DNA of 64,000 bases, taken from assembly GCF_018350175.1 (NCBI RefSeq), contig NC_058368.1, positions 14,510,001 to 14,574,000 on the forward strand, given 5' to 3'. The notes beneath the pieces were generated by a model, which was not told the origin of the DNA, searched no databases, and saw nothing but the letters and a program-made list of their open reading frames with translations. The DNA is from Felis catus (taxonomy: Eukaryota). Position 1 is the stretch's first letter. Every line of letters begins with the position of its first letter. Below are positions 4,134-64,000 of the stretch, piece after piece. Position numbers and translations under genes: made by a program.

Positions 4134-4253
4134 GGGGCACCTGAGTGCCTCAGTGGGTTAAGCGTCCAGCTCTTCATTTTGGCTCAGGTCATGATCTCAT
4201 GGTTTGTGAGTTTGAGCTCTGAGTCCGGCTCTGCAGTTCAGAGCCTGCTTAGG

Positions 4254-4295
<42 letters not shown>

Positions 4296-4525
4296 CCTCC
4301 CCACCTCCACCACTCACACGCACACATGCTCTATCTCTCTCTCTCAAGAATAAATATACATTTTTTTGAAAACTTAAAAAAAAGAAAGATACAGCTTAGA
4401 GCGCCTGGGTGGCTCAGTCGGTTAAGCGGCCGACTTCGGCTCACGTCATGATCTTGCGGTTTGTGAGTTCGAGCCCTGCATTGGGCTCTGTGCTGACAGC
4501 TCAGAGCCTGGAGCCTATTTCAGAT

Positions 4526-4569
<44 letters not shown>

Positions 4570-4637
4570 TCCCCCATTCATGCTCTGTCTCTCTCTGTCT
4601 CAAAAATAAATAAACGTTAAAAAAAATTTTTTAAAAA
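4134..4637 (+). mobile_element. Two tandem SINEC copies (4134-4383 and ~4398-4637)
   Basis: Two heads, two (CT)n tracts and tails; the target motif GAAAGATACAGCYT occurs three times. Confidence 0.95.
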
Positions 4638-6023
4638 GAAAGATACAGCTTGAGAAATGATTGTAACATTATAAAGACAAGTTAAAGTCTAAAATAGATT
4701 TTCCCTCTTACTTCAAGAAAAAGCAAAATTTATAAGTATAAATTTTGAGTAATAAATTATTTTATATTTATAATTGCTCAGAGTACTTCTGTTGAATATA
4801 AATAAATAAACTACAAGAAACATTTTAATCCTGATACTAAACTTACCAGTTGCTATAATGAATTACCTGACTTCTGTTTACATACCTGTTATATCTTGTC
4901 TTTCTATCAGCTCAAGTGCTGCTGAACAAACTTTCAGACAAAATACAGTGCTTCTTTAAAATAAATCTCACTATTTACTATCAATGTAAATACGTTGATA
5001 TTTACGTTGAGAAATACGTGTGTTTATCAAGCCACAAGAATGTCATCAAGCCAAGTTCATACAACATACTAGGAACTATAAAGATTGCATATAATGTGGT
5101 GAATTAACTGTCCCTCAAAGATGTACTCACGTATTCAAAACAATTAAGTTTCATAACTGACTAAAATATGAGGGATAAATACTTGTGCATTTCTGAAAAT
5201 GTCGTAAAACATTTTCAGAAATGCATAGTAATTTTTGCAGTTCTTTTTTCGTTGAGGTATAGTTGACATATAACATATTACTGTTTATATGTATTATATA
5301 TTACATTTTTATTATAACAACAAGTTCCAACTTGTTTTTGTGAAGAAGTGAAAGAAGCAAGCACTGGGGTTTTTCTGTATTCTAAGCCAAATCCCTGTTA
5401 TCTTGTAGCCATTAATGAGTCAGGTAAGACTTTTGAACTAAATCTTTACTCCATGGAGTGAAAGGCTTTACCCCAAATCCCGCATATTTGGGGAAATCCA
5501 ACTGCCCCTGTCTTGGTTCCGTGCAGCACCAGAATGCAGGGTCAGGTTCAATCAACCGTGTGTAGGAAGTGCCTGCTAGCACAGAACAGGTGGCTTGGGA
5601 AGTGTTTATTCTTCCTGTTGTCTTTCCCTGGGTTTCCCTAGAAGAGACCCTGAAGAATAGGAAGGGAAAGCTACCATGGCGTCACCTAGGCTCTGCATCC
5701 ACAGCCGCCACTCTTGGTCGCATCAGAATTGGAGCTAACGGGCAGCCGGAGAGAGCCGCCTCTTAGAAGAACAGTCCTAGACATCAGAGCGAGCAAAGGA
5801 CGTCTTTTGAACAGTAGCGTGTGTCTGCTCTCCTCCCTCAGTGTCTCCTGCGCTGCTTTCCTTCAGCTTGCAGTTTTTCTTCACAGTATCCTGTTCTTAG
5901 CTGACTCTGCTCCAGCTTCTGGTCCGTTTCCCCATCGTACTGCTGGGAAATGATCGCACTGATGTCATTCAGAAACAATGCCAGGCATCTGTGTTAACAG
6001 TAGGAAATGTAATCAATCATGTG

Positions 6024-17281: not shown

Positions 17282-18559
17282 TAAATTCCAGAGTTTTTAC
17301 AAATGTAGGAAAATGAATATTATATGTCAAAACCAAGTAATGAGACCATCATGTTCTTCTTTTTTGAATTGTAGACATATATAATGCACTTCAATATCCC
17401 TGTTTTGCTTGTTTTATTTTAGCATCTTCATTAAAATGCTTAATGCCCAGTGTGTGTTATTAATAAAACCTAGTGGGACATTTGAATATGAATAGTTCAC
17501 ATTAAAATAATCTGCCAGTATATATTTTCTTAAAAAAGCAAACTTGCAGACTTCTACACAGAATGCTCAAAAAATGCATTGATAAAATAGATGAGGGTAT
17601 ATATAGTATTTTATTCCAGAATATTCACCAAAATGCATCAATGAAATAGATGAGGGTATAGTATTTTATCCATGTAGGTTCTTACCCTGAAAGTTTATAG
17701 CTAACAGTTGGGAATTGTGTGTGCGTAAGTATTTTTAGTGAAAATATTCCTGGAAAATATTATTTAAATCACTTCTGCACTGCACGAAATGACTTCAGAT
17801 AGGTGAAGGAGTAAAGAAGCAACAGCTGCTGGGTGAGCATCACTGCCAAGGAAGCCATGCCCCAGCCTCCATTCTGCCCGGTAGCTGCCATCTGCTGTGT
17901 GCAAAACAAGCAATCATGGAATGCTTGTTGTATTTTTTACTTTTAGTCTTAGAGGTGGAAAACTTGTAGACTTGGGAAATAAAGCCCTACAAGAAAAATT
18001 TGCATCCACAAAGTTACTTCTTATATACCCCTACAAAAGCAAAATGATTCCATTTGTATGGCTTCAAGCAGAGAAAAGAAAAGGGAAGAGGCTCACAATG
18101 AGTGCTCATTGGACCCTTAGGGCTGAATATTCAGAGAACACATTGTAAGCACGTTATTAGGTGCAGTGTTACATCGTGTTGTATGTGCAAGGAAACGGAT
18201 TATTGCCTGAAGCTGGAGGAAGGGAATAGAGACAGAGAATGAATGAATGAGAGAGAAGTCAGATAGTATGAAATTCATCAGTGAAAGAAGGGATTTTCTC
18301 TGCAAACCATTACACTCTCCTGATTTAGTATCCCCTGTACAAACTGTAATCAGATTATTTTGTAGAAGATATTCTCAATTATTCTGTTCACAATATGCCT
18401 TTGTTTAACACATGTCCAGTTCTGTAAACGCATTACAGATTGTATTCCCCTTTTAGACCCAATATGTATAGGATCAGAAAAAAAAGAAAACACTTGGAAT
18501 AGCTTATTGTTTTATTCCAAGACCAGCTCCAAGTTGCTTTTTGACTTTTAAATATCATC

Positions 18560-18770
18560 TGGGATGCCTGGGTGGCTCAGTCGGTTGAGCGTCTGACTTC
18601 TGCTCAGGTCAGGATCTCGTGGTCTGTGAGTTTGAGCCCCGCCACGGGCTCTGCGCTGACAGCTCAGAGCCTGGAGCCTGTTTCAGATTCTGTGTCTCCC
18701 TCGCTTTCTGCCCCTCCCCCACTCATGCTCTGTCTCTCCTCTCTCTCTCTCTCTCTCTCTGTCAAAAATT
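18560..18770 (+). mobile_element. SINEC_Fc-type SINE
   Basis: Typical head and body; flanked by tttaaatatcat on both sides. Confidence 0.92.
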
Positions 18771-23342: not shown

Positions 23343-23555
23343 GGGGCGCCTGGGTGGCTCAGTCGGTTGAGCGTCCGACTTCGACTCAGGTCATGATCTC
23401 ACGGGTCCGTGAGTTCGAGCCCCACGTCGGGCTCTGTGCTGACAGCTCAGAGCCTGGAGCCTGTTTCACATTCTGTGTCTCCCTCTCTCTCTGCCCCTCG
23501 CCTGTTCATGCTCTGTCTCAAAAATAAATAAACATTAAAAAAATTAAAAAAAAAA
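23343..23555 (+). mobile_element. SINEC_Fc with perfect TSD
   Basis: TSD AGAAAATGAACTCATA at 23327-23342 and 23556-23571. Confidence 0.96.
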
Positions 23556-25904: not shown

Positions 25905-27390
25905 CAAAAAAGATACACAAATGACCAAAAAGCACATGGAAAGATTCTTTTTTTCTTTTTAATGTTTATTTATTTTTGAGAGAGAAGAGAGACAGAATGC
26001 AAGCGGGGCAGGGGCAGAGAGAGAGGGAGACACAGAATCCAAAGCAGGCTCCAGCTGCCAGCACAGAGCCCGACCCAGAGCTTGAACTCACAAACCATGA
26101 GATCATGACCTCAGCCAAAGTCGGATGCTTAACCGACTGAGCCAACCAGGCGCTCCACCCTGGAAAGATCCTTCACATCACTCATCATTAGGGAAATGCA
26201 GATCAAAACCTCAGTGACATACTACCTCATACACGTTAGGTTGGCTAGTATCAAACAATGCAAGAAACATAAAATAGCAAGTGTTGGAGCAGACATGGAG
26301 AAATTGGAACCCTGGGGCACCTGGGTGGCTCAGTCAGTTCAGTGTCCAACTCTTGACTTCAGCTCAGATCATGATCTCATGGTTCCTGGGATCAAGGCCC
26401 ATGTCGGGCTGTGTGCTGACACTGCAGGATTCTCTGTCTCCCTCTCTCTCTGCCCCTCCCCACTCATGCGCTTTCTCTCTCAAAATAAATAAACACTTAC
26501 AAAAAATAAATTGAGGGGCACCTGGGTGGCTCAGTAGGTTAAGCATCCGACTTCGGCTCAAGTCATGATCTCACCATTTATGAGTTCCAACCCCGTGTCC
26601 TGCTCTGTGCTGACAGCTCAGAGCCTGGAGCCTGCTTCTGCTTCTGGGTCTCCCTCTCTCTCTGCCCCTCCCCTTCTTATGCTCGCTCTCTCTGTCTCAA
26701 AAATAAATAAACATTAATTTTTTTTAAATAAATAAAAACCCTTATGCACTATTGTGGGATTGTAAAATGGTGCAGCCTCTCTGGAAAACAGTATGGAAGT
26801 TCCTCAAAATTTAAAAATAGAGCTACTGTATGATCTAGCGATTTCATTTCTGGGTATATACCCAAAAGACCTAAGAGCAAGATTTTGAAGAAATATTTGC
26901 ACACCCATGTTCATAGCAGCATTATTCACAGTAGTCAAAGGGTGGAAGCAGCCCAAGTGTCCATCAGCAGATTCACGAACCCATAAAACTGTGGTGTGGA
27001 CACACAGTGGAGTATCACTCAGCCTTAAAAAGGAAGGAACTTCTTACACAGGCTTCAACAAAGATGAACCTTGAGGATGTTATGCTAAGTGAAATACGCC
27101 AGTCACATGACAAATACTATATGATTCCACTTATATGAAGTACCTAGAAGAGTCAAAATCAAAGAGACAGAAAGTGAAAGAGTGGTTTCTGGGGGCTGGC
27201 GGGGAGGAGCAAATGGGGAGTTGTTAATGGGTACAGTGTCTCAGTTCTGAAAGATCCAAAGAGTTGTAGGGACTGGTTGTACAGCAATACGAATGTATAC
27301 AACACTACTGAAGTGTGTACTTTGAAAATTGTTAAGATGGCAAGGTTTCTGTTATATATATTTTATCACAATTTAAAAGAAATTTAAAGG
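25905..27390 (+). mobile_element. L1M (L1MA/MB-like) 3' fragment with three SINE insertions (25950-26156 -, ~26314-26514 +, ~26515-26735 +)
   Basis: gggaaatgcagatcaaaacc, ggtgcagcctctctggaaaacagtatgg, catgttcatagcagcattattcacag, tatgattccacttatatgaagtacctag. Confidence 0.88.
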
Positions 27391-43570: not shown

Positions 43571-44409
43571 GTGAGTATTTGTCTAGAAGCGTCCCCTCAG
43601 ACAATACATTTATTTAAACATACTTTGCCTTTTTTATTTTTCTAACAGCTTTTCCTGGGGTTGTGAGACTTTTAAAAAAGGAGAGCTTTACATAGCAAAA
43701 ATGTTTGTTAGAATGTCACTATGTTCGAAGTACAAACAAGGGCAACCACTGTAACCTTCCACCTGGGAAAAGTCCCAGGTCCCCTCACATTGACCCTCTC
43801 TTTGGCAGCCCATCCCCAATCTCCCAATGTCTTTATCCTTCAGAAATCTCTTTCAGTGTCACCTGGTCCATTAAACGTCTTATAACTGCTCTCAACTGAA
43901 TATACTCTCTCCCTTCTCTGAATTTCCTCAGAGTGCCTCAGTGAGGACACTTCTTACTTTCTACCACATAGTTGAGTAAATATCTCTGTTTATTCATTTA
44001 ACAATGATTGAGTACTCCCTTCAGATTAGGCATTGGGAAGGCAAAAACTGAAGGAGACAATTTCTTTGTGATGGTTCCTGAGTATTCTTTATTCACCAGC
44101 GCTCCCTAAAATATCCCATAGGAAAAGAATGGGGGGGGGGGACTCCAGAGTAAAATAATTTTAGAAAACTCTGCATATACTCTTATTCTCTAGGTAAGTT
44201 CTGAAAGTCTTACACAAATAAATCTGTCGAAATTTGTTTAACCCATTCTGCTCCTGGCAGAATAGTTATTATTCTTTGGAACTGCTGTTCTGAGGAAACA
44301 CTGAAATGGACTATGAGTCTCTCTCTTTCCATTCTCAGTCTCTGGTTCCTGGCAAAGTGACACACATAATGGTTTTTTCAATAAGTATTGTTAAATGGAG
44401 AACTAGATA

Positions 44410-44491
44410 TTGAAGGAAGATGGCGGCTTAGGAGGACGCTGGGCCCACCCACCTCGTCCTGCTGATGACTTAGATTCCACCCACATCTGCC
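44410..44491 (+). mobile_element. 82-nt fragment resembling the extreme 5' end (5'UTR start) of a carnivore/felid L1, flanked by 18-bp direct repeats
   Basis: ggaagatggcggcttaggaggacgctggg...cgtcctgctgatgacttagattccacccacatctgcc matches my recollection of the felid L1 5' terminus; direct repeats at 44392-44409 and 44492-44509. Confidence 0.7.
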
Positions 44492-45659
44492 TAAGTGGAG
44501 AACTAGATAAGAGATTGCGTAGAAATAGTCACTGTTTTTAATTACCAAGGTTTCAATAGTTTCAATGCAAATATTTCCTATAAAATAGAGAATGGTTTCT
44601 GGAAAGCGCTGATGATGTCTGGTGCTTAAACCGGGGCGATTCTAATTGTAATTCATACATTGGTCACAGCTTAAAGAATACTCCGAAACCAACTGAAACA
44701 TGAGTTTGGGTCATATGTACAACAAGACAGAGATAAGAATTTTCCGGGGATGCTGTGTACCTGCCACTGAAATATTGTAAGAGCAGATGAGAAGTGCACG
44801 AGATGCTGTGTTCCAGCCACGTGGCTGGAGCCTAGCTGAGGATGAAGGCCCAGTTGTATAATCTGTCCACCTTGCCAGTCCCACCCACCCCCGACTCTTA
44901 CACATTTTGACAGGAATGTTGCAAAAATAGAAAATGGCTTTTCATTGCTAGGAGCCAAGGCCCTATCATAGTAGAGAAGAAAATAGGGAAATATATAGAA
45001 ATGTATACATATGAATGAAGATAGTGGGAGATGAACTAGAGGACCAAATGTTACATGGGGTTTTATTCGTGCTGCCCACAGCTGGAGCTGAAGAACAGTA
45101 GATGAAGAAACTCAAGGGCACCATGGAATCATGTTTCTTAGCATAGGTACCAAATAAGAGAGAGTGTGTGCGTCTTACGTATCAGCCTCTGCTCTAAGTT
45201 GTGAACTAAGATGTGATGCTGGTTTGAGGGAAAAAACACAGCGTTGCTTGCTTTCCAACCAGCTCAAATAATTAGCTACCATGTCTACATTATAACAAAT
45301 ATACTCTAAATACTAAAAAATTAACCTCCTTATTTATTCTTTTCTATAATATCCCTTAAAAAAACAGAAACTTCATTTTTAGCAGAATTCTAGTGTATGT
45401 GCATGTGTGTATATGTGCGTATAAGACATTTGATCTACCGTTGGTGGCTTTCTTATTCTCAAGCATTGTATGTTATCACACGTATTCTATCCGAATTTAT
45501 TTTTTCATATTTACACATCTCCTTTATTTTCATAGTAGCGTAGCATTCATTAGAAAAGTTGAATTAAGTAGCAGGCCCGTGTAGTAGCTTCCATCTGTAT
45601 TGATAAAAATTGTAAGTTTTTAAATTAAAAAAATATTTTTAAGAAACGAAATAGTGCTT

Positions 45660-45870
45660 TTTATTTTAAGTTTACTTTGAGAGAGAGCACAGGCACGCGC
45701 AAGTGGGGTAGAAGCAGAGAGAGGAGGGAAATAGAGAAAGAATCCTAAGCACGCTCAGTGCTGTCGGTGCAGAGACTGATACGAGACTCCATCCACGAAC
45801 TGCGAGATCGTGACCTGAGCTGAAGTCAAGGGTCAGATGCTTAACCAGATGAGCCACCCAGGTGCCCCCC
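45660..45870 (-). mobile_element. SINEC, antisense
   Basis: ...gagccacccaggtgcccc terminus; tagtgYttt flanks. Confidence 0.9.
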
Positions 45871-48800
45871 GAGTAGTGTTTTAAATTTCTTTCAATAAAT
45901 CTTCAAAATGAAGCTCAGAAATGATGAAAATGATATTTCCAAAAAGAGGATTTATTTCTTAAAAGCTCCCAGCTGGTAGCCAAGAGAAGATATTTTGTAT
46001 ATTGTACTGCTATGAGGTAAAGAGTTTTAATGTTAAATTATAGTAATTATCTGTGTTAGCTACTTTATATTATTTTCTAATGATCTTTTAAGCCAAAAGA
46101 TAATTAACAATTGCTGTAGCTTTGGTCCATCAGTTACCAAGAAAAATTAAATATAGTAATATTTATACTGTTTAAATTTCCTTACAATGGGAGCTCTCTA
46201 AATGAAAATATTTATATTAATCCTTAAGAACAAAACTCTGAACATTGTATTTGTTAAGATGCAGCATTTTATTTAAGCTTTCAATAAAGACAAGATTATC
46301 CTTAAGGAATTAAGAATATTATCAAAGCATACTATTTATTATTGCCTCCATTTATAAGAATTTATTTTTGATCAAAACTATTGTCATCATTATGAACATA
46401 AACCACTTCCTAAAACCCACTGTGTCAAAACTTGCTTGGACATTTAATATGGACATATATCATAAGGCTTTATTTCATCCATCATCCTTAATATAAGGTG
46501 AAAAATTGCTCTTCTAGAATAAACAGCATGATCACCTGAAGTGTTAAATCAAGCAACAAGCATGTACTGAGTGCCTCCTGGGTGCTAGTCCTGCCTTAGC
46601 AGCTGAGAATGCCGGGTAGTCAAAGTCTCTGACCTGTGGTTTACAAAAACCTATATTGTACTAATCTCCAAACTCCTTTTTCTGCTTGAACGTACTAAAC
46701 ACATAGAGTATTTATTACACGGATCATAAATTGCCATCAGATAATAATGTTTGGTCTTGTACTATGAAACGTTTAGTCTTCCACCTGGGGGACAAATTGA
46801 AAATTATGTAAAAACTAGTATCAGCTTCTTACCCTATGAATAATTGTAATAGTAAAAAAAGATTAATAATTGGTCATATTTTGTACTTGATTGACTTGAC
46901 CGATTTATGACTTTGCCTAATCTGTTGAAACAGCCAACTTAGCAGCACATATATGCATGACTAGAGAGACCACATATATCGGTCCAGCCACTGTTTGTAA
47001 AGGCAGCCTCTGCACACACTGAACTGACGGTCACATCAGGGATCAGCCATGGGTGTTGACATAAACATAGTCCTTGCCATCAGAAAACTCACAGCACGAG
47101 AGGAAAGGATTTTTTGCTTCTGTCCCAGTTTAATCTATTCTAGCCACCAATTCACACAGGTCAGAGAACCAGGCCGTATGTGTTTTCTATCTTATAATGC
47201 ATTGCTACTCAAGACGAAAAAGCTCGTTATGTCTAAATTCATATTAAAGTGTGTGACACAATGCCCTTCGGTTTTGAGGGTTGTATATATTAACCTAGAC
47301 TTGAAGGGGGAAGTCCTAGTGTGAAACATAATATCCCAGTAGCTGTTAGAATCCCGGGATTGGTCGTGGTAAGGACATTGAATTGCTTTGTATGTCAGAG
47401 GCCGAATCAGATGTATATTCAGCACAACATAAAATGATAGGATCCATTTACTCACTTTCTCAAGATTAATTCAAGTGGCTCTCTAATATATTTATGTCTC
47501 TTTCGCATTGTCTTTATTCTTTTTTAATGGGTGGCTCTGTTGCTACCAGAGAAAATATTTCTAATGTTTGTGGATTTCTTAGGTAAGTGCAGAAAGAGTT
47601 TTATGGTTTCATTGTGTCAAATATATTATCGTGACTAATTCAGACGTCTCAGAAATAGTCTTTTCCTAATTATTTTCATAGTTTTAATGAATTTTCCACA
47701 AAGACCATGAAAATTTGTACACAGATTATTACAAAGAGTTTCAGACCATAAAAGAAATAGGCAGATGCTGTGTAACATAGGTTACAGTTGAATTATGGTT
47801 GTTTTATTAATATATTTTATAATACTGATATCTAGTGTTATTCTTGCAAACTTGTGACTTTGAACATAGAAAATTTTCTTGGAGATTTGAATAGGTCCCT
47901 GACTAGATAACGAATCGCAGAGATGTGAGGGACAGATGCTTTCATCTGAAACACTCTTTTGCACAAATTCTGAAACTAATTTGGAAGTGATAAAAATTAA
48001 TTTGCGCACTTTAATTGGAAGCAGCCTACTGCATGAAAGAAAGGAGAGCAGAGCAGGCAATTTGTGCTAAAAGCTGATTGAATTTTTTGTCAGGTAGGTA
48101 TCTTGGACTTGGCCGCTTATCCTCCCGAGCCCCTCTTTGCAATATATTACAACCCATCTCTGACTGGTGTTCTTTAAAAGGATCAATGCTATTCCTGTTG
48201 AATCCCTGGAGCCCAAAATTTCATTGATCTTGGGACTTGACATTTCTCATTACGTGCCGTAGCTTCCAACAAGATAGTCACAAGAGGGGCAAGTCAACAT
48301 TGTTGTCTCTTCAACAGACACTTAAAATACACTGGGACCTCAGCTCTAAATCCAATTTGCTTTCAAATTGTGTGGTTTTAGTGTTTATACCACATATGAG
48401 GTGCTCTGTAGAGAGTTTGCCGATACATACATATGATGTTTTTAAAAATCATAGCAGTAGGAAACTTTGGAAGAGAATTTACTGCTCATCTTTTCAAATC
48501 CCATCTACAAATATTCATTGAGTAATATACATAAGACGTTAGTATGCCTTTTCAATTTCACTTTTTAAAAACAAGTCTTTTAGCTCATATATAAGCAATA
48601 TGCAGACTGAAACGAGAAGCCCTTTGAAAAGGAGACTCCAGCTGTGCACACATCCCTTCCCTGGGCTCCCATTGTGTGAGCTTCAGCTCTGGACACTGAC
48701 CCTCCTGCCAGCCACAACCTGTCACTAAACATCTGCCAAATCGTATCCCTCTCTTTGTTTGCATCCAGCCTTCTTTGAATATGGCTACCCTGGTGCCCAG

Positions 48801-49112
48801 CTCCATGACCACCACTAACCAGTGGTATTGTACCAGGCGAAAGCGTGCCCAAAGAACGGTCCAGAGATGTTTAACATCTGTGTATCTTTGCCACACTTCT
48901 CAGAGCAAGGGACCTTATCTAGGGCTTATTAAATGTATTAGAGGCAAGAGTTATATGTGAACAATCTCTAACTCCTAGGACTTTCAAAACTGATGTCCAT
49001 AGTGTAACTTCCTTTTCTCAGCCTCCTATCCCCTTAGCCTACCATTGGGACACTTTGTAGGGTTTGTGACTAAGAAGGGGACTGACTTGCCACTTGCTCT
49101 CTGCCTTGTCTC

Positions 49113-49294
49113 GCCTCCCCTCCCCTCCCCTCCCCTCCCCTCCCCTCCCCTTCCCTCCCCTTCCTCTCCTCTCCTCTCCTCTCCTCTCCTCTCCTCTCCT
49201 CTCCTCTCCCCTCCTTTCCTTTCCTTTCCTTTCCTTTCCTGGAATTGAGGCTGTGAGGCTCTTTGGCTTGGGTCAAAAGCAATGTATATTTAAA

Positions 49295-49327
<33 letters not shown>
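49113..49327. repeat. Polypyrimidine pentamer array (CCCCT)n-(CTCCT)n-(CTTTC)n, then (CA)n at ~49297-49327
   Basis: Directly visible. Confidence 0.95.
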
Positions 49328-49328
<1 letters not shown>

Positions 49329-51074
49329 GAGTAACTAATACGATCTCTTGGTCAGAGAGCTTCAGATCTGCACCAGGAGGCAGTGGGGGTGTCTCTGGGC
49401 ATTATGCAAAGCTCTACTCCCTTGGATTATACTGTTGACTATTTGGGGAAGGTAATGGCAGGATACTAATGTGCCTTGACCTGGATACAGGGTCAGGACT
49501 TAAAGGGAAGAGATTTGCCCTGCCACAGCAGGGCTCAGAAGTGGTCTGTGTCATCTCTGCAGGACAAGAAGAAGAACTTTGAATGAATGAATAAACAGGC
49601 GCATATCTATCTTCTATTTTTCAGTGAATATGTAATAAAATGAAACCATATCATGGGATGTTTTCCATCCCAGGTGATGTTTTTTATGTGGGTCACCCTT
49701 TGGCCTGTGGAAAATGTGGGCCCAGCCATTTTTGGTACTTGGGCCAGACCTCTGCAAGGGGCTGCGAGGACACACTCTCCATAAGGGACTCCTCATGGGC
49801 ACAGTTCTCTGAGCGATCCTGACAATTGCCTAACAATTTTTTTGAATAAACCTTGAAATCAGGTAGTGATTAAAATGCCTCTTCTGGGGTTTCACGTCTA
49901 TTTCACGTAGGCATAAACATGAACGAAAATACCTTTTGCCATGACCTAACGAAGGTTGTAGATAAAATCAGGTCATACATCATCAAGACGTTCGCCTTCT
50001 GACTCCAGTAGAACCGTGCTGAGGATCATAGATTGTAGAAACTCTGCTGTTTTTGTTTAGCTCTTGATTCAGAAGGACCAAAGCTTCCCCCTGCATACTA
50101 GTCGCCCCACAAATAAGGCTTAAAATAATAAGAACCATGAGTATCTTTGCTTTGATCATTTCTCTAAAAGCAGAGACCATCTCACTGAAAAAGTTCTCGT
50201 CAGTTCCATGTGAATAACAGCATCTAATAACTTTGTACTGTTTTCATCATCCATTTTGGAAAATATTGAAATGGCTTTTGCTAAATAATGAGATGGAATC
50301 TGTTTATAATAAGCTTTTTGTATTTGGACTTTCCAAATACTTGTCTATAAGCAATGTCAAAGTCGGCATGTTTGTTCTTTATGATCCACGGCAATTCCGT
50401 CACACAAGAGCTCTTCTGTTTGAGGAAATGCTGGGGGATGAGGGCGATGGTGTTGTGGTCCTGGGATGGGGGGGGCTCACCTGCGCCTTCCCCCTCCCTG
50501 TGCACAGGCCCTTTCACCCCCAGCTACATCCATCAATTGTGATGTGACAGTGACAGAATATTCCCAAGATTTTGAATGATTGTTGGGGTGTGTGACATCT
50601 GTCCCTGGCAGTGAAATGTCCCTGGCAGGAAAATATGCTTTTTCCCCCTGATGCAGGTTTCTCAATTCAAAACCCCCTGCATAATATTTTGTTTACTTTT
50701 CTCTGTTTTAAATCGGGAAATAATGCTTTCAGAGGCCCTAAACAATATCCCCTGATAGTTCTGTTCCACACTTTATTCAAATGATCTGGGGAGATTGTCA
50801 CGAAAAAAAATTTTTTTAACTTTCTAAATCAGTTGCAAACTTTTGAAAACCTTATTTCCTAATAGATAATATATTATATACATAAAGAATAGTTTTATAC
50901 ATGTTTTTCAATTCCCTGCAAGAGAAGTAGGTTGCTTTTTACTTTTTTCTGTAGCATATAAGGGAAAAGTTTAGAAAATTCTTTATGTAAATTTTATTAA
51001 GCATATAATTTCAGGATTTTTCATTTGACCAGTCTCTCGCGAGATAAAATAATCACTTAGAAAAATTAAGGGTA

Positions 51075-51288
51075 GGGTCACCTGGGTGGCTCAGTCGGTC
51101 CAACTTCTCGTTCTTGATTTCAGCTCAGGTCATGATCCCAGGGTCATGGGGTCGAACTCCACTTCAGACTCCACGCTAAGTGTGGAGTCTGCTTAGGACT
51201 CTCTCTCTCTCCCTCTCTCTGCCCCTTCTTCCCCACTCGCACACATGCATGTGCACTGTCTCCAAATAAATAAACCTTAAAAAAGAAA
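51075..51288 (+). mobile_element. SINEC with TSD
   Basis: TSD agaaaaattaagggt on both sides. Confidence 0.92.
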
Positions 51289-52061
51289 AGAAAAATTAAG
51301 GGTGATATTACACAGAAAGTGTTACTTCTCATTTTACCAAGGAACTCAGGGCCTCTTTGAAGCATAATTTTATAAATATGTTTCAGACAAATCTGGGACT
51401 GCTGGCAAATATAAATCGACACTTTGCCAATTTGAAACACGTTATAGCAATGTACATAAACTTAGAATAAGATGACATGCTCTCTGGGGCTACCATCCCC
51501 CTCCTCCCATACTCCATCAGAGAGATGCCTCAAAAGCAAAATGGAAACTGATGGATCGGAGAAAGCTCACATGAAACTGAGCAGTTCCTGCAGAGACAGA
51601 AGATGAGTAGGTCTGAAGGAGGAGGCATTGGCAAACCAGAGGGAAGAGCGTTGTGTGTCTTGCAGGGTAAGGTGTCTTAGTTACGCTCTCTCCTCCCAGA
51701 ATTTTCCCAGACCTATTGTTGCCTTCCCTCTGGCCGCAGTGGGGCGTAGAATTGGACAACCAGTGTGGCTGCTCAGTGCCGCGGGCCACATCAGTGCCAA
51801 AGAAGGGGCTTTCAGGAGGCAGGCACGATTCCCAGGCCTTGAACATTCACTTCCCCCATCCTGCCCCCTCCACAATGAGGGCCAGGCATGGCAGCCCAGG
51901 AGACAACTCTCAGAGCAGTGTCAACCCCAAAGCACAGGGTGGCTCTCTAAGAGACAAGAATTGGGTGGTAGGGGCGGGGGGCACGCCATCCAGAATAGGA
52001 TTTACAGAGAAAAACAGGCCAGTATGCAAGGAACTCAAGCACCATTTAAAAGAAGATCACA

Positions 52062-52290
52062 GGGGCACCTGGGTGGCTCAGTGGGTTGAGCATCCGACTT
52101 CGGCTTAGCTCATGATCTCACGGTTTGTGGGTTCGAGCCCCACATCGGGCTCTGTGCTCAGAGCCTGGAGCCTGCTTCAGATTCTGTGTCTCCCTCTCTC
52201 TCTGCCCTTCCCTCACTCATGCTATGTCTCTCTCTGCCTCTTAAAAGTGAATAAACGTTTAAAAAAATGTTTTAGTAAAAAATAAAATAA
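52062..52290 (+). mobile_element. SINEC_Fc-type SINE
   Basis: Typical head, body and tail. Confidence 0.92.
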
Positions 52291-52898
52291 AAAATCACAA
52301 ACTCAATAACCGGGTGAGGCAGAATGAACAGAAGAGAAAAATAAATGGAACTTTTAAGATACAACTTTTAAAATAAACAGTCTAAAAGAGAGGACCAAAC
52401 TTACTAGTAATGTTCTATATTTCTTAAGCTAGGAGGTGACTACAAATGAATGTATTTCATTCTTTTAATTTCATGTGTGTGCTATAAATATTTATATGTA
52501 ATTGATTTCTTTGAATTATTTATTTCTAAAAACAAAGGAAGATCAGGACACTTTGTGGGAGCTACCAACTTGAAAAGAATTTGTGACCCTGGGAAAAAAA
52601 AATTAATTAATCTACAGAAATGTTTATCAAACTTGACTGTTACACTGATCCCTTTTAAAGAGAACAAAATTGTTATTAACACCAAAAAACAAAAACAGAA
52701 TGAAACGAAAATAACCTCTGGCTTTGAGAAATGTGTTCTAGGACCCCACAAACGAGTCTGAGAAACATTGACTTAATCAATTAGTTCATCTTAAGTTTTA
52801 AAACATATGTAAATTTTAAATTGCCACAGCATAGATGTTAGACAGCAAAAAAGAGATCTCATCTTTATAACTGATGAAAAAATATTCTTAGAGTATCA

Positions 52899-53024
52899 GT
52901 GTGCCTGGGTGACTCAGTCGGTTAAGCATCTGACTCTAGATTTTGGCTCAGGTCACTATCTCACATTCCCTGGGTTCAAGCCTCGTGTTGGGCTCCACAC
53001 TGACAGTGCAGAGCCTGCTCAGGA

Positions 53025-53071
<47 letters not shown>

Positions 53072-53100
53072 AATAAATAAATAAATTTTAAACAAATAAA
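52899..53100 (+). mobile_element. SINEC
   Basis: gtgcctgggtgactcagtcggttaagc head, (CT)n, AATA tail. Confidence 0.9.
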
Positions 53101-54369
53101 CGTGTGTGTGTGTGTATCGTCAAATTATAAACCTGAAATTTAAAATTTTTCATAGAACTTTATACTCCCAAGAAAATATCCACAGACCTCAGGGTACAGG
53201 GACCCTAGTTTGAGAAACACCAAGAATTCTGGAAGAGTTGCAGTTACACGACCGAGTTCAACGTGCCTTTTCAAGGAGAAAAAGTAATGGTCAATAATAC
53301 TGATAGCTTAAGATGAAATATACATAAAAAGTATAAAAAAATAATAATAATATAATAAACTCTTTGCTAAGATGATACTGTAGAATAAACTAAACAACAC
53401 AGCCAGCTAAACCAATGTCAGACAATAGGAGTCAGCTAGAACTGTTTAAAAATTAAGACAGAAAGAAATGGGCAACGTAACACATTAATAAGTGTGATGT
53501 TAATGAAAAATGGAAATACTGGGGTGTTACAAGGCATTGCTAAATATTTGTTGAATCTGATTCAGTGGTTCAAGTCCAAATTGTATTGTTACTAAGTATT
53601 TCGCATCCTGCTTTCTGATCGCCCCACCTTCAGCAGAATTTCACTTCGGTGAATCGTTTAGGCCTTCACATATGCCCAAGGCGACCAGCACTGGCTTTCT
53701 TTTCCCATCCACCAAACAGAACCACTCAGAGCCCTACCCATTCACCTTCCACAGTGCCTCTGTGACTTTCTGTTGTTTCCTTTTCCTTCACATGTCTGCA
53801 CCCAAGACTGTAGAGACCCCTCATTTCTGTCCCAAACTGGCTTCTCCAATCGGTTTGCCCCCATACGACAATGTTGGGCATAATGCCCTCTCAACTTTGC
53901 TGACCCTTCTCACACAGTCTTTGTGCAGGTTACTCACCAGATAGTCTGATATTCTCTTCCTAAGGAGATCTTTTGATCCCTTTTGTACTCTGCGAACACA
54001 ATCTGTTCTTCCCCACACTTGGCATTGTCGAGTGCCTCCACTGGAAAGCCTGGGAAAGGCCAGGGTTGTTTGATGAGTTGTCAAGAGTTTCGGGGCATGC
54101 CTTATGCCTCCTCTTTATACTCCCAGCTCCTAGTCTCCTTAGAGAATGCCTTTCACCTAAAAGTCATCCACTTAATGTTTGTGAAAGCACTTAGCAGTGA
54201 AAATGCTTATGGCACGTAATCCAGTTGGACTTTTAGCTAGGTTTGACTTTATTAAGTCAAGTGGAAACTTAAGATGATCATCTCTTTTTTTTTCTTTACT
54301 ACTTACCTCTCACCTCAGAATCAAAGCGTGTCAACCTGTTTTGTTGGAGATTTTAGGGGAAATTTTTAA

Positions 54370-54610
54370 ATGGGTAAAGGCATGGGTTTCAAAATTAGAC
54401 AGCTCCAACACTTACTAGCTGTATGAACTTGTGCAGATTGAATAACCTTGCAGAGCCTTAGGTTTCTAGCCATAAAATAAGTATAATAAGCGTACCTACC
54501 TCCTATGAATATTGCCATCACCAAATGAGATAATGCATATAAATACCTTGGCAGCCTTGGTGTGTTTCCTAACAATAGGAATAAAAGAAAAGCTGTCACC
54601 ACTGTCATAA
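54370..54610 (+). mobile_element. MIR relic
   Basis: acttactagctgtatgaacttgtgcagatt...gagccttaggtttct...tacctacctcctatg...aaatgagataatgcat. Confidence 0.65.
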
Positions 54611-54857
54611 TGTTGTAAGCACATCGCATTTGTTAACTTATTTAGGCATCTGAACAACCCATGTAGTAGTTTTACAGAAGTAGTAGGTTACAGATGAGGA
54701 GGCAGTAGAGAGGTTAAGCAACCAGCTCATGGTTACACAGCTAGCAAATGCCCATAATAGATGTTCACGGTTATTATTGTAAATGTTTGACGTAGCGGCG
54801 TAGCTCTTCGTTTCCGCCATTGGTCTGTAGTAACCCACTGCTCCTGTTTCCTTGCAG

Positions 54858-54959
54858 GCGACTATCCTGCCCCAAGAGCTGTCCTCACAGGCCATGACCA
54901 TGAAGTTGTCTGTGTTTCTGTCTGTGCAGAGCTTGGACTTGTTATCAGTGGTGCTAAAG
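54858..54959 (+). CDS. NBEA: Neurobeachin coding exon (WD40): (S)DYPAPRAVLTGHDHEVVCVSVCAELGLVISGAK
   Basis: ttgcag|GC ... AAAG|gtcaga; 102 nt, phase 1/1; LTGHD WD40 start. Absent from the ORF track. Confidence 0.95.
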
Positions 54960-60045: not shown

Positions 60046-60136
60046 GACTCTGATCACTGGCATGGCTTCTGGTAGCATCGTAGCTTTTAATATAGATTTT
60101 AACCGGTGGCATTATGAGCATCAGAACAGATACTGA
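60046..60136 (+). CDS. NBEA: Neurobeachin last coding exon: [29 protein letters not shown]
   Basis: ttccag|G acceptor, phase 2; TGA at 60134-60136. The C-terminus matches NBEA as I recall it, not the paralog LRBA. Confidence 0.96.
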
Positions 60137-61890
60137 AGACAAATGAAGAACCAAAAGCCAAGTTAAAGCTGAGAGCACAAGTGCTGCATGGAAAGGCAAT
60201 ATCTCTGGTGGGAAAAAAACTCGTCTACATCGACCTCCGTTTGTACATTCCATCACACCCAGCAATAGCTGTACATTGTAGTCAGCAGCCATTTTACTTT
60301 GTGTGTTTTTTCACGACTGAACACCAGCTGCTACCAAGCAAGCTTATATCATGTAAATTATATGAATTAGGAGATGTTTTGGTAATTATTTCATATCTTG
60401 TTGTTTATTGAGAAAAGGTAGTAGGACGCTTCACAAGAGACTTTTGACAATTCTGAGGAACCTTGTGTCCAGTTGTTACAAAGTTTAAGCTTTGAACCTA
60501 ACCTGCATCCCATTTCCAGCCTCTTTTCAAGCTGAGAAAAAAAAAAAAACACGTTTGATACTTTGTACATCAGATGCATCTTATTTAAAGGGATACTTTT
60601 GTAAAAGTAAAACCTTGTATAAAGAACAAAATGTTTCTTAATTTTATTGTGGAGTTACAACTTGCATGTTCTTTAATCCTGATGTCTCGATGGAACAGGT
60701 GCATTCAGACTATGAAACAGAAAGATCCGTCCAAGGACACAGCTTGTACGAAAGGGTTGAATTTGGGCTCAAACAGTAATTTTTGACATTTTCACCAAAA
60801 TATGGTTTGCACTTTTTAATCTAAATTCATCCCTTCTAAGTGAAATTTGCTCATAAAGCATTTGGATACTAAGCCATTATTTGCCATTTTTGCTACTTTA
60901 GACACAGAAAATTCAGCCCTACCCTTCATAATTTGAAGACACAGCAGAAAGGGGGCTTAGGGATGAGGTCTTGGTTTTTCTTGTATAAATAGAAGTCACG
61001 CCCATTAGTTCCATAGTAATGACTTCCCAACTCCTGGACATCTCTTCCAGACTCATCCTGCTGGCTTAGCGTGTGTACATTAGGGGAGGAGAATCTGATG
61101 CTAACTATTTTTGGATTTTTTTTTCTCTTTGGTTCTCGAATAGCTTAGTTTCTTTAATAACAAGCCAGACTTTATTATAACAATAACTGAGGCTATTCTT
61201 TTAGGTTCTTGTGAAATTCTCACCTAAAGCCACATTCTTAGCCTAAGGCACTTCATCTTTTATGATATAAGATGATGGGTGTCAAATGATTTTCCATACA
61301 TTGTACTGATCAAGTTATACACCCAGGGGTATATACACTTTATTCATGTTTCTTCTTTGTATATTTGGTGACTGTATCGTCATAGATGTACATATTGTGT
61401 CGGTAGGGCTATGAGGCATGTTACAGGAATGTGATTTTCTCAGAATTTACACTCACTTGCAGTCATTTATTTAAAAAGATAACACAAGATAATGGGTTCT
61501 TTGTATTGGCACTTTGCACCAGAAACATATCATTATTTATTGATGTGATTACTTATTTGTCATCCACCTTGTATTAGTAAGTTTTAGCACTGAATTCCTT
61601 CTTCATTGTTGTTTGTATTTATGAGATTCTGAAATTCTGGGGAATCAGCGTAATGATTAAGTTATTCATCACCAGGCTGTAAGCAATATCTTGAGTTTGT
61701 AGCTTAGAATTGGGAGGATACTGAACATCTGGAAGACAAGTTCATTTCATCTTGAGATCATGGTGAAATATTTTGGATATATAAATTCCTTAAGCTATTG
61801 TAACCATGTTTTATTGCAAAGATGTAAAATATGCCAGATGTGTGTGAGTTGGAAATCAAAAAAAAGAAAAATAAAATATGCAAAGAATTC
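60137..61890 (+). other. NBEA: NBEA 3'UTR
   Basis: AU-rich stretch with no recognisable interspersed repeats, from the stop codon to just past the AATAAA; the 3' end is approximate. Confidence 0.8.
61870..61875 (+). terminator. Polyadenylation signal AATAAA
   Basis: AATAAA with TGTA elements upstream (61798, 61823) and a GT/T-rich patch (ttgtttc) about 20 nt downstream. Confidence 0.75.
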
Positions 61891-64000
61891 ACCGATTGTT
61901 TCACATTTCATTGGACCCTTCCCCAACACGCATTCATTATGTTGTCATACAAGTTTAAGAAATCAACATCACCTCTTATAAAGGCCCGTGGCATCTAAAA
62001 ACATGAAATAGGGTCCTAATGAGGTTCCGTAATTTGCTGATACACGAGCTGCTCTGCTTGACCATCTGGCAGGGATTTGGGGCAACGGTGACCAGAGGGA
62101 AACGGCCCTGTTGTTTTCTTCCACATAATCCACTTTTTGGGTTAGTCTGTGTTTTATTTAAAGGGAACTAAACGCAGGTGGTGGTGAAGAATATAACTGC
62201 TCATCACATGAATGTTATCGAATGAGGCTGTTTTTGTTTGAACCGTGTGTTCTAGAATTTATCATGCCACGCCTGCATGCCACGGGCAGGGGACGAGCAA
62301 CCTGGAGGAGGGGTGCAGCTGCCAGGCGGGCAGGCGGCAGGGGTGATGCTCCGGGGACCCGGTCACTCCACGCCGTTGCGGCACAGGCAACAGGCCCAGG
62401 GCGTGACGGGACTGCACGTAAGCCTCCGTCTACGTGCTCGAGACCAAAAGGACAACCAACAGCCACCCGAGAGAGACTTGCTCCTGTCACTCTCCACTCT
62501 GTCCCCAAGCCAGACATCTGTCAGCCACCGTAAGCCCAGCCGGCTCGCTCAACCAGCCTCCTGGCAGCCCATCGGTCGTTCAGTCAGGCTGGCTACCCAC
62601 GCTCTTTAAACCAACTCCCCACTTCCAGAACCATCATCCGAACTATCACCAGACCCCTGTATCCGGGTCTCCAGCCAGACCCTCCCGCCACACTTGGCCT
62701 TGCTCCTAGAGGGTCTGGTGCACCACCACCCAGTCATCCCGCGGCCGAGCACCTTGCAGTGGTTCTCTTTAAACTCTGATGGGCGAAAACTTGCCTGGGG
62801 AACTTGTGCTCTTAGAGAGCTTACTCTAGGCCCCATCCCCGCCAAGTGATTCCGGCACAGGTCATCTGGGGCACATTTTCAACAACACCGATGTGAGGGC
62901 TGAAATCCAAACCCAGCAGAGCATGAAAGTCCTTCAGGAGGGAAACATTCTCATTATCCCTCCCTCAGGGGAACCCACCTATTTACAAGCCCCTGAGAAC
63001 TTCCCTGTGCCTTGGTCCCTAGTGTCCTCCCTGCCCAGAGAGCACCCCTCTGCCTGCACTATGTGCTTGAACTCCTTGTTGCAGATTGACCTAAACCAAT
63101 CTGGTCACGAGCCATCTTTCTGGCCTGTGAAGGTAGTATCCAAACCCCACGTGCACAATATATTATCAGGAAAACAACTTTCAGGACCAATATCTTCCAC
63201 GTGTAGAGATACCTTTTCAGCGAGCACATTTTAGCAGGCAGGCAAGTAAAAGACCCATCAGAATTATTCTGTGAGCTTGGTGAATTCCAGTGCCTTTCTA
63301 GATGATCTGACAACCATTTGACATAGAAAGTATACTGAAAACAGACACCGGCATTCTGTATAGGAGCAGGATCCTATCAGCCTTGTGATGGCTTCAGAAT
63401 GTGCCAATCCAATCATTTAGGTATCAGCCTCAGGCACCCGCATAAGAGTATAAAGACCTCAGTGCATTCTTACACCCTGGTTATGGAGAGGCAGGAAAGG
63501 TCTCTAAAATACTGCAGCCAGTGCATAACTGGACTCACATGTATTCAATACCACTACTTTCATCAATGAGAGACCCTTTGTAATATCCCTTATGCTAATT
63601 CAGAAGGCAATACTATCCCCCACTGAAAAGTCATTCTTAACATTCACTATCCTAACTTAAAAAAAAAAAAAAAAAAAAAAAAAGCTTCTGGTTCCTTTTG
63701 GAATAAGGAAGCTGGAGCTCTGGGCCCTGACTTACATTGAGTCTGGAATGTAAATCTCTGATCTGGACTCTAAAGCTCTGATCAGAGTAACTGACCGCCC
63801 CTCAGAATGCAGTACGAATAAGCACATACTATCCCGATGTCTCTAATGCATATTTTGAAGTAACTTACGGCATCATAACACTTGTACTTATTGTTACAGG
63901 TTCAGCCCAAGTGCTCCCTCCTCTCTGAGGCCCTCCCCACCTGCTGAGTTAGCTTGCCCACACCTGGTATGTCCCTGTCCCAGTGCTGAGTAGTAATATT

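Follow-up and report, generated by a model that had tools for sequence, protein, structure and literature searches.

How does the head of an L1 element come to stand, without body or tail, in an intron of NBEA? Target-primed reverse transcription (TPRT) normally starts at the L1 RNA's poly(A) tail, and short L1 copies keep their 3′ end and lose the 5′ end. In the Felis catus DNA analysed here (the window, a stretch of 64,000 nucleotides numbered from its first letter), a preliminary description had noticed a piece with the opposite polarity between two direct repeats, and had proposed either internal priming of L1 RNA or microhomology-mediated deletion of a full-length L1. These two mechanisms proved to be the right pair to weigh, and we favour internal priming. 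The features on which the argument draws are the following.

43571..54857, + strand: NBEA intron between two WD40-region exons; bounds approximate, the downstream exon being a presumed one
44392..44409, + strand: left target-site duplication (TSD), 18 nt, whose start is an L1-endonuclease-type site
44410..44414, + strand: five bases unmatched by the family in read coverage, either extra nucleotides or a diverged L1 start
44415..44491, + strand: family 5′-terminal piece (about nt 12–88), read as L1 5′ UTR from the read alignment
44417..44427, + strand: YY1-type motif of the L1 start, from the sequence and the published L1 start consensus (PMC5381506)
44492..44509, + strand: right target-site duplication, 17/18 identical to the left copy, with no A-tail before the repeat and crossed by a read contig of run X15
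44492..44496, + strand: 3′ junction microhomology, from 1,700 and 1,905 reads at an agreement of 0.9

To judge from its exons, the host gene on the + strand is NBEA. Neurobeachin 1mi1 was matched by the exon at ~17.0 kb with an E-value of 1e-32, against 2e-30 for LRBA, and this match bears out the earlier placement of the insert inside NBEA. The neurobeachin beta-propeller model gave matches at the exons at ~42.7 and 43.4 kb, with Pfam scores below the curated cut-off. A GT splice donor stands at 43571, and the exon starting near 54858 is presumably the next NBEA exon downstream of the insert, which thus lies ~0.82 kb into an intron of ~11.3 kb, among the WD40 exons and on the same strand as NBEA. 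The NBEA stop codon is found at 60135–60137; about 2 kb beyond it, a GC-rich stretch was observed at 62000–62600 (GC 0.497 in the 2-kb bin).

All 157 words sampled from 43700–45200 (a fraction of 1.00) were found in 20 of the 24 listed runs (10 studies, single organism), 14 of these 20 runs being flagged as a possible source of the assembly DNA. A contig of the unflagged run X15 spans 44461–44900 and crosses the right junction with 0 differences. On these two counts an assembly artefact was ruled out; read contigs demonstrate the presence of the insert, not its fixation.

The two repeats are identical at 17 of 18 positions at a spacing of 100 nt, and the match extends in neither direction. Between them lie 82 nt without an A-tail, with three CpG and a GC content of 0.585, compared with 0.38 and 0.41 in the 500 nt on either side. 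The coordinates and identity of the repeats, their spacing, the tailless GC-rich insert and the YY1 core at 44417–44427 all agree with the preliminary description. First-order Markov simulations of the window yielded no qualifying pair, defined as two 18-mers with at most one mismatch 30–500 nt apart, in 10 of 10 cases, while the real window contains 75, almost all of them microsatellites, SINE copies or SINE TSDs. By a crude search, 19 of the 25 SINE heads in the window carry TSD-like repeats of 10–20 nt, many starting (T)AAA, and the duplication around the insert resembles these SINE TSDs in length and start. A second copy of the insert was not found within the window. A diverged 100-nt tandem duplication was ruled out, since the insert has no upstream match and matches a dispersed family. 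Separately, through its mismatch at 44495 the right repeat acquires a GT (44495–44496) that reads in the NBEA direction, with surroundings that suit a splice donor poorly.

The insert was identified from reads aligned at 80% likeness to 44000–44900 in four of the 24 listed runs, two of which are raw reads of ~1.94 Gb each. In the two raw-read runs the depth at 44465–44495 was 1,950 and 2,152, against 0–1 in the flanks; nearly all reads fitted only in part (2,404 of 2,406 and 2,616 of 2,618), and the family match spans 44415–44494 only. With a source genome size that we take to be ~2.45 Gb, the read depth gives a rough copy number of ~2,500. Upstream of the match the loose read ends are A-rich, then G-rich, and agree at just 0.44–0.53. 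Such varied flanks meeting one start indicate that the insert is the 5′ terminus of a dispersed family, and the same conclusion follows from X15 contigs of 2.5–4.8 kb, which end within the family piece and diverge upstream into unrelated flanks. Past 44494, the 1,700 and 1,905 reads share one continuation with a median loose length of 60–64 nt, visible for 30 letters past the break.

We take this family to be a probable felid L1, on reads that cover 30 letters past the break. One of two read-derived family starts fits, by eye, the published L1 start, a G-run followed by YY1; in the available part of that source, almost all mammalian L1s begin in this way, in a comparison that included dog and panda and did not include cat (PMC5381506). 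A mammalian L1, with the insert as the head of its 5′ UTR, is the reading that fits this likeness. The preliminary description had called the insert the first ~80 nt of felid L1, which holds for the 5′ terminus of a high-copy, L1-like family and needs correction in extent: the piece really covers about nt 12–91, lacks ~11–13 nt of the read-derived family start and has five unmatched bases ahead of it. Similarly, a family piece does fill the space between the repeats, its match starting at 44415 and not at 44410.

Measured against the letters most frequent among the reads, the copy departs from the family at 44445 (98% of reads), 44467 (95%), 44486 (~76%) and 44482 (~64%), and probably also at 44428, and it has 2–4 extra bases at 44446–44455. 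The total of 4–5 substitutions and one short indel indicates that the insertion is not recent. We also observed at least two different family 5′ starts upstream of the YY1 core, together with length variants at 44446–44455; a variant present in ~9% of reads is one CACC shorter than the copy in the window. The start and length variants point to several L1 subfamilies behind these reads.

Other sources of the insert were considered. An 18-nt insert motif had 0 matches in viral contigs and 0 in GTDB genomes, and its three matches in metagenome contigs were rejected as chance, nothing being common beyond those 18 nt. Rfam returned nothing at the insert site, its sole matches in the window being two tRNA-like ones at SINE positions, and a small-RNA retrocopy was rejected on this ground.

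At the 5′ side, family coverage falls away before the left repeat is reached: 20–37 family reads extend to 44413–44414, against ~1,200–1,300 at 44424. In the available part of Kojima 2010, 5′ extranucleotides are described as frequent on YY1-bearing L1 insertions (PMC2912911). Searched for without mismatch, the 10-nt YY1 core turns up a single time in the window. When one mismatch was allowed, three matches were obtained against 1.9 expected, so the YY1 motif by itself is not beyond chance.

At the 3′ junction, family reads match through TAA at 44492–44494 and then continue with A and T, where the right repeat has G at 44495; the next 5 nt of the family coincide with the 5 nt that open the left repeat. 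The L1 continuation TAAAT, which the preliminary description had given as identical to the repeat start, is thus displayed by the reads from 44492 on. Complementarity at the break amounts to 5 nt with the left copy; with the right copy, 3 matching nt are followed by a mismatch and one further matching nt. If the G at 44495 was the original target base, the perfect match shrinks to 3 nt. This microhomology is located exactly at the first base of the duplication, the position at which the TPRT primer ends. The chance of a given 5-mer at a fixed place is ~0.002 for the intron composition; since A-richness is inherent in endonuclease sites, this figure makes the case look stronger than it is. The start of the left repeat is marked by TT/AAAT (44391–44396), or by GT/TAAAT when the T at 44392 is taken as part of it. 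TT/AAAT is near the L1 endonuclease target TT/AAAA, as given in the available part of PMC9237045, and is oriented as expected for a sense L1.

In our reading, the insert is probably a one-off, tailless L1 retrocopy that arose by internal priming through a microhomology of 4–5 nt. L1 ORF2p would have nicked the bottom strand at TT/AAAT, to judge from the site, and the freed 3′ end would have paired by 4–5 nt with an A-rich stretch ~90 nt into the L1 RNA, not with the poly(A) tail. Reverse transcription would have spanned just ~80 nt, to near the 5′ end of the RNA. Following the TPRT model, the top strand would have been cut ~17–18 nt away and fill-in would have produced the duplication. The five unmatched 5′ bases may be extra nucleotides or may reflect a source transcript starting slightly upstream, and the piece would since have drifted by ~5–6% plus an indel. 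Internal priming at an A-rich stretch was reportedly described for L1 and Alu by Srikanta in 2009. Noll 2015 (PMC5322556) proposes a model of internal priming in which target and RNA are complementary and the target is of the TT/WAAAA type, and internal priming is described for L1 in the available part of a review (PMC4859970). Among the reads of four runs, two of them at ~onefold depth, no empty-site joint was found; a single run of another organism had 0 reads aligned to 44000–44900, which proves nothing either way.

The same final sequence would be obtained if a full-length L1 had inserted normally with an 18-nt TSD and had later been deleted internally to its head. Near-full-length L1 starts are common in the genome, in the thousands, and in dogs internal deletions of existing L1s are common enough to be named as a false-positive source in the available part of PMC12458276. 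However, such a deletion requires that the right breakpoint fall on the first TSD base, leaving no tail base and the whole TSD. End-joining should not favour this position above any other A-rich 5-mer; for priming, by contrast, the position is obligatory. Moreover, the site shows no trace of L1 3′ sequence or tail, and precise TSD-to-TSD removals, a related although not identical event, are called extremely rare in the available part of PMC5402677. We consider this deletion unlikely.

A different template might also account for the break: a short L1 RNA already ending near nt 90, by premature termination or cleavage, and primed at its own 3′ end. The length of the insert is that of promoter-proximal RNA, with the break placed at a predicted hairpin's 3′ foot. 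When the insert was folded without the downstream sequence of the family, the break fell just past the base of a long hairpin, a position that would suit internal priming as well; with a z of −1.27 and 21 of 200 shuffles as good, the hairpin is not significant. One locus cannot separate such a template from internal priming, but Noll 2015 looked, in the case of 5S and U2, for RNAs truncated in this way and for intermediates carrying an oligo(A) tail; neither turned up, and internal priming was preferred (PMC5322556). Altogether we hold a short-RNA template to be distinctly improbable.

A broader reading would make the insert one of many L1 head stubs of ~80 nt with YY1 that end at the same base, a SINE-like class marking a recurring priming or termination point in the A-rich stretch at the foot of the first hairpin of this L1 5′ UTR; this appears rather doubtful. 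Past the break, one tenth of the loose-end letters disagree with the shared family continuation. There is likewise only a small chance that such stubs are templated by short promoter-proximal L1 RNAs, scattering YY1 sites, and it seems improbable that the NBEA stub can initiate a sense transcript across the last WD40 exons. Many copies sharing this end base would reveal that the L1 5′ UTR has a favoured place for priming or termination.

Endonuclease-independent capture, in which a staggered double-strand break was mended with L1 RNA or DNA and its stagger gave the duplication, is very unlikely. According to PMC5402677, which cites Srikanta 2009, insertions by internal priming are possible at staggered breaks that lack an endonuclease site, and the five unmatched 5′ bases could be filler; but the site is near TT/AAAA, in the orientation for a sense L1, and the duplication has the length typical of TPRT. 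Finally, the absence of any insertion, with an assembly error or with repeats that by chance surround old unique or non-L1 sequence, is largely refuted and next to impossible: the YY1 motif alone is within chance and no ORF of the family appeared in the reads, but no comparable repeat pair arose in any of the 10 simulations, only 5 nt separate the left repeat from the start of the family match, which runs up to the right repeat, and 20 runs contain every sampled word of 43700–45200.

Read as an internally primed copy, the insert invites comparison with the tailless retropseudogenes of Noll 2015, for which Schmitz et al. 2004 is said to be a further source. These retropseudogenes share with it a 3′ truncation, no A-tail, a TSD (8–35 nt) and an RNA-complementary target (PMC5322556). 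The thresholds used there are a 3′ truncation of at least 10 nt without oligo(A), a TSD at least 70% identical, and an element of at least 30 nt that is more than 69% like its source. Here the family continues past the break and there is no tail, the TSD is 18 nt at 94%, and the element is ~80 nt, with reads at 80% likeness or more; at the break, target and source RNA are complementary. The target consensus of Noll, TT/WAAAAWW, is matched partially by TT/AAATG or GT/TAAATG. That class also has its break in single-stranded source RNA, and here the break falls just 3′ of the hairpin base in the non-significant fold. Their ‘perfect’ filter for 5′-complete copies admits at most 5 nt missing, and the NBEA copy falls outside it because ~11–13 nt of the read-derived start are absent.

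The L1s of Noll are human, whereas the present one is non-human and felid-like. With relaxed screening, 90 human L1s were 5′-full and 3′-truncated, against 708 full-length ones, and 5,593 human tailless L1s were truncated at both the 5′ and 3′ ends (PMC5322556), so that the broad tailless class still applies here. The part of their Table S2 available holds at least 21 L1/HAL1 rows, of 55 to 2,614 nt. Among the 21 rows matched, five are below 100 nt (55–81 nt), all old L1M/HAL1, and the shortest L1PA/L1HS is 215 nt (PMC5322556). The insertions of L1 and Alu in Srikanta 2009, as cited in PMC4859970 and PMC5402677, reportedly also involve A-rich internal priming that leaves a 3′-truncated, TSD-flanked copy; unlike in those cases, priming here would have occurred in the first 100 nt of the 5′ UTR, at an endonuclease-looking site, and left the head only. 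The full-length L1s in the available part of Kojima 2010 (PMC2912911) have in common with the insert a YY1 motif, a few unmatched bases ahead of it and a TSD of typical length (peak at 14–16 nt), but they keep body and tail, unlike the NBEA stub. A literature search, with most subscription journals outside it, brought up neither this locus nor any tailless L1 head from felids, and nothing useful on felid L1 5′ UTRs. The class is already catalogued by Noll 2015, and the NBEA stub is a real but ordinary by-product of L1 copying.

On the best reading, internal priming, the locus would be a clean textbook demonstration that L1 need not use the tail when it copies its own RNA, and its presence or absence might serve as a marker in carnivore phylogeny. 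Its importance would grow only with many copies ending at this base, or if the stub had promoter or YY1-binding activity in NBEA. The term ‘minimal L1 promoter’, given to the insert in the preliminary description, is only a label for a putative activity. Expressed L1 loci in human cells require open chromatin, low methylation and, as a rule, contact with an enhancer, according to PMC8887483. An 80-nt diverged stub is most likely silent, and most likely neutral today.

Four further places in the window deserve mention. The SINE heads at 4134 and 4398 (4134–4650) have overlapping, near-identical flanking repeats ~250 nt apart and are apparently tandem SINEs at one target site. At 17582–17658, 18-nt direct repeats (17/18) lie 59 nt apart around an AT-rich stretch of ~41 nt; this may be a further very short insert between TSDs, or else a duplication of local origin. 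A short frame at 26133–26310 is interrupted by a SINE and has no Pfam match; to us it resembles the C terminus of an ORF2 from an old L1. The Rfam tRNA matches at 18566–18650 and 23348–23433 coincide with SINE heads, and are tRNA-derived carnivore SINEs, not tRNA genes.
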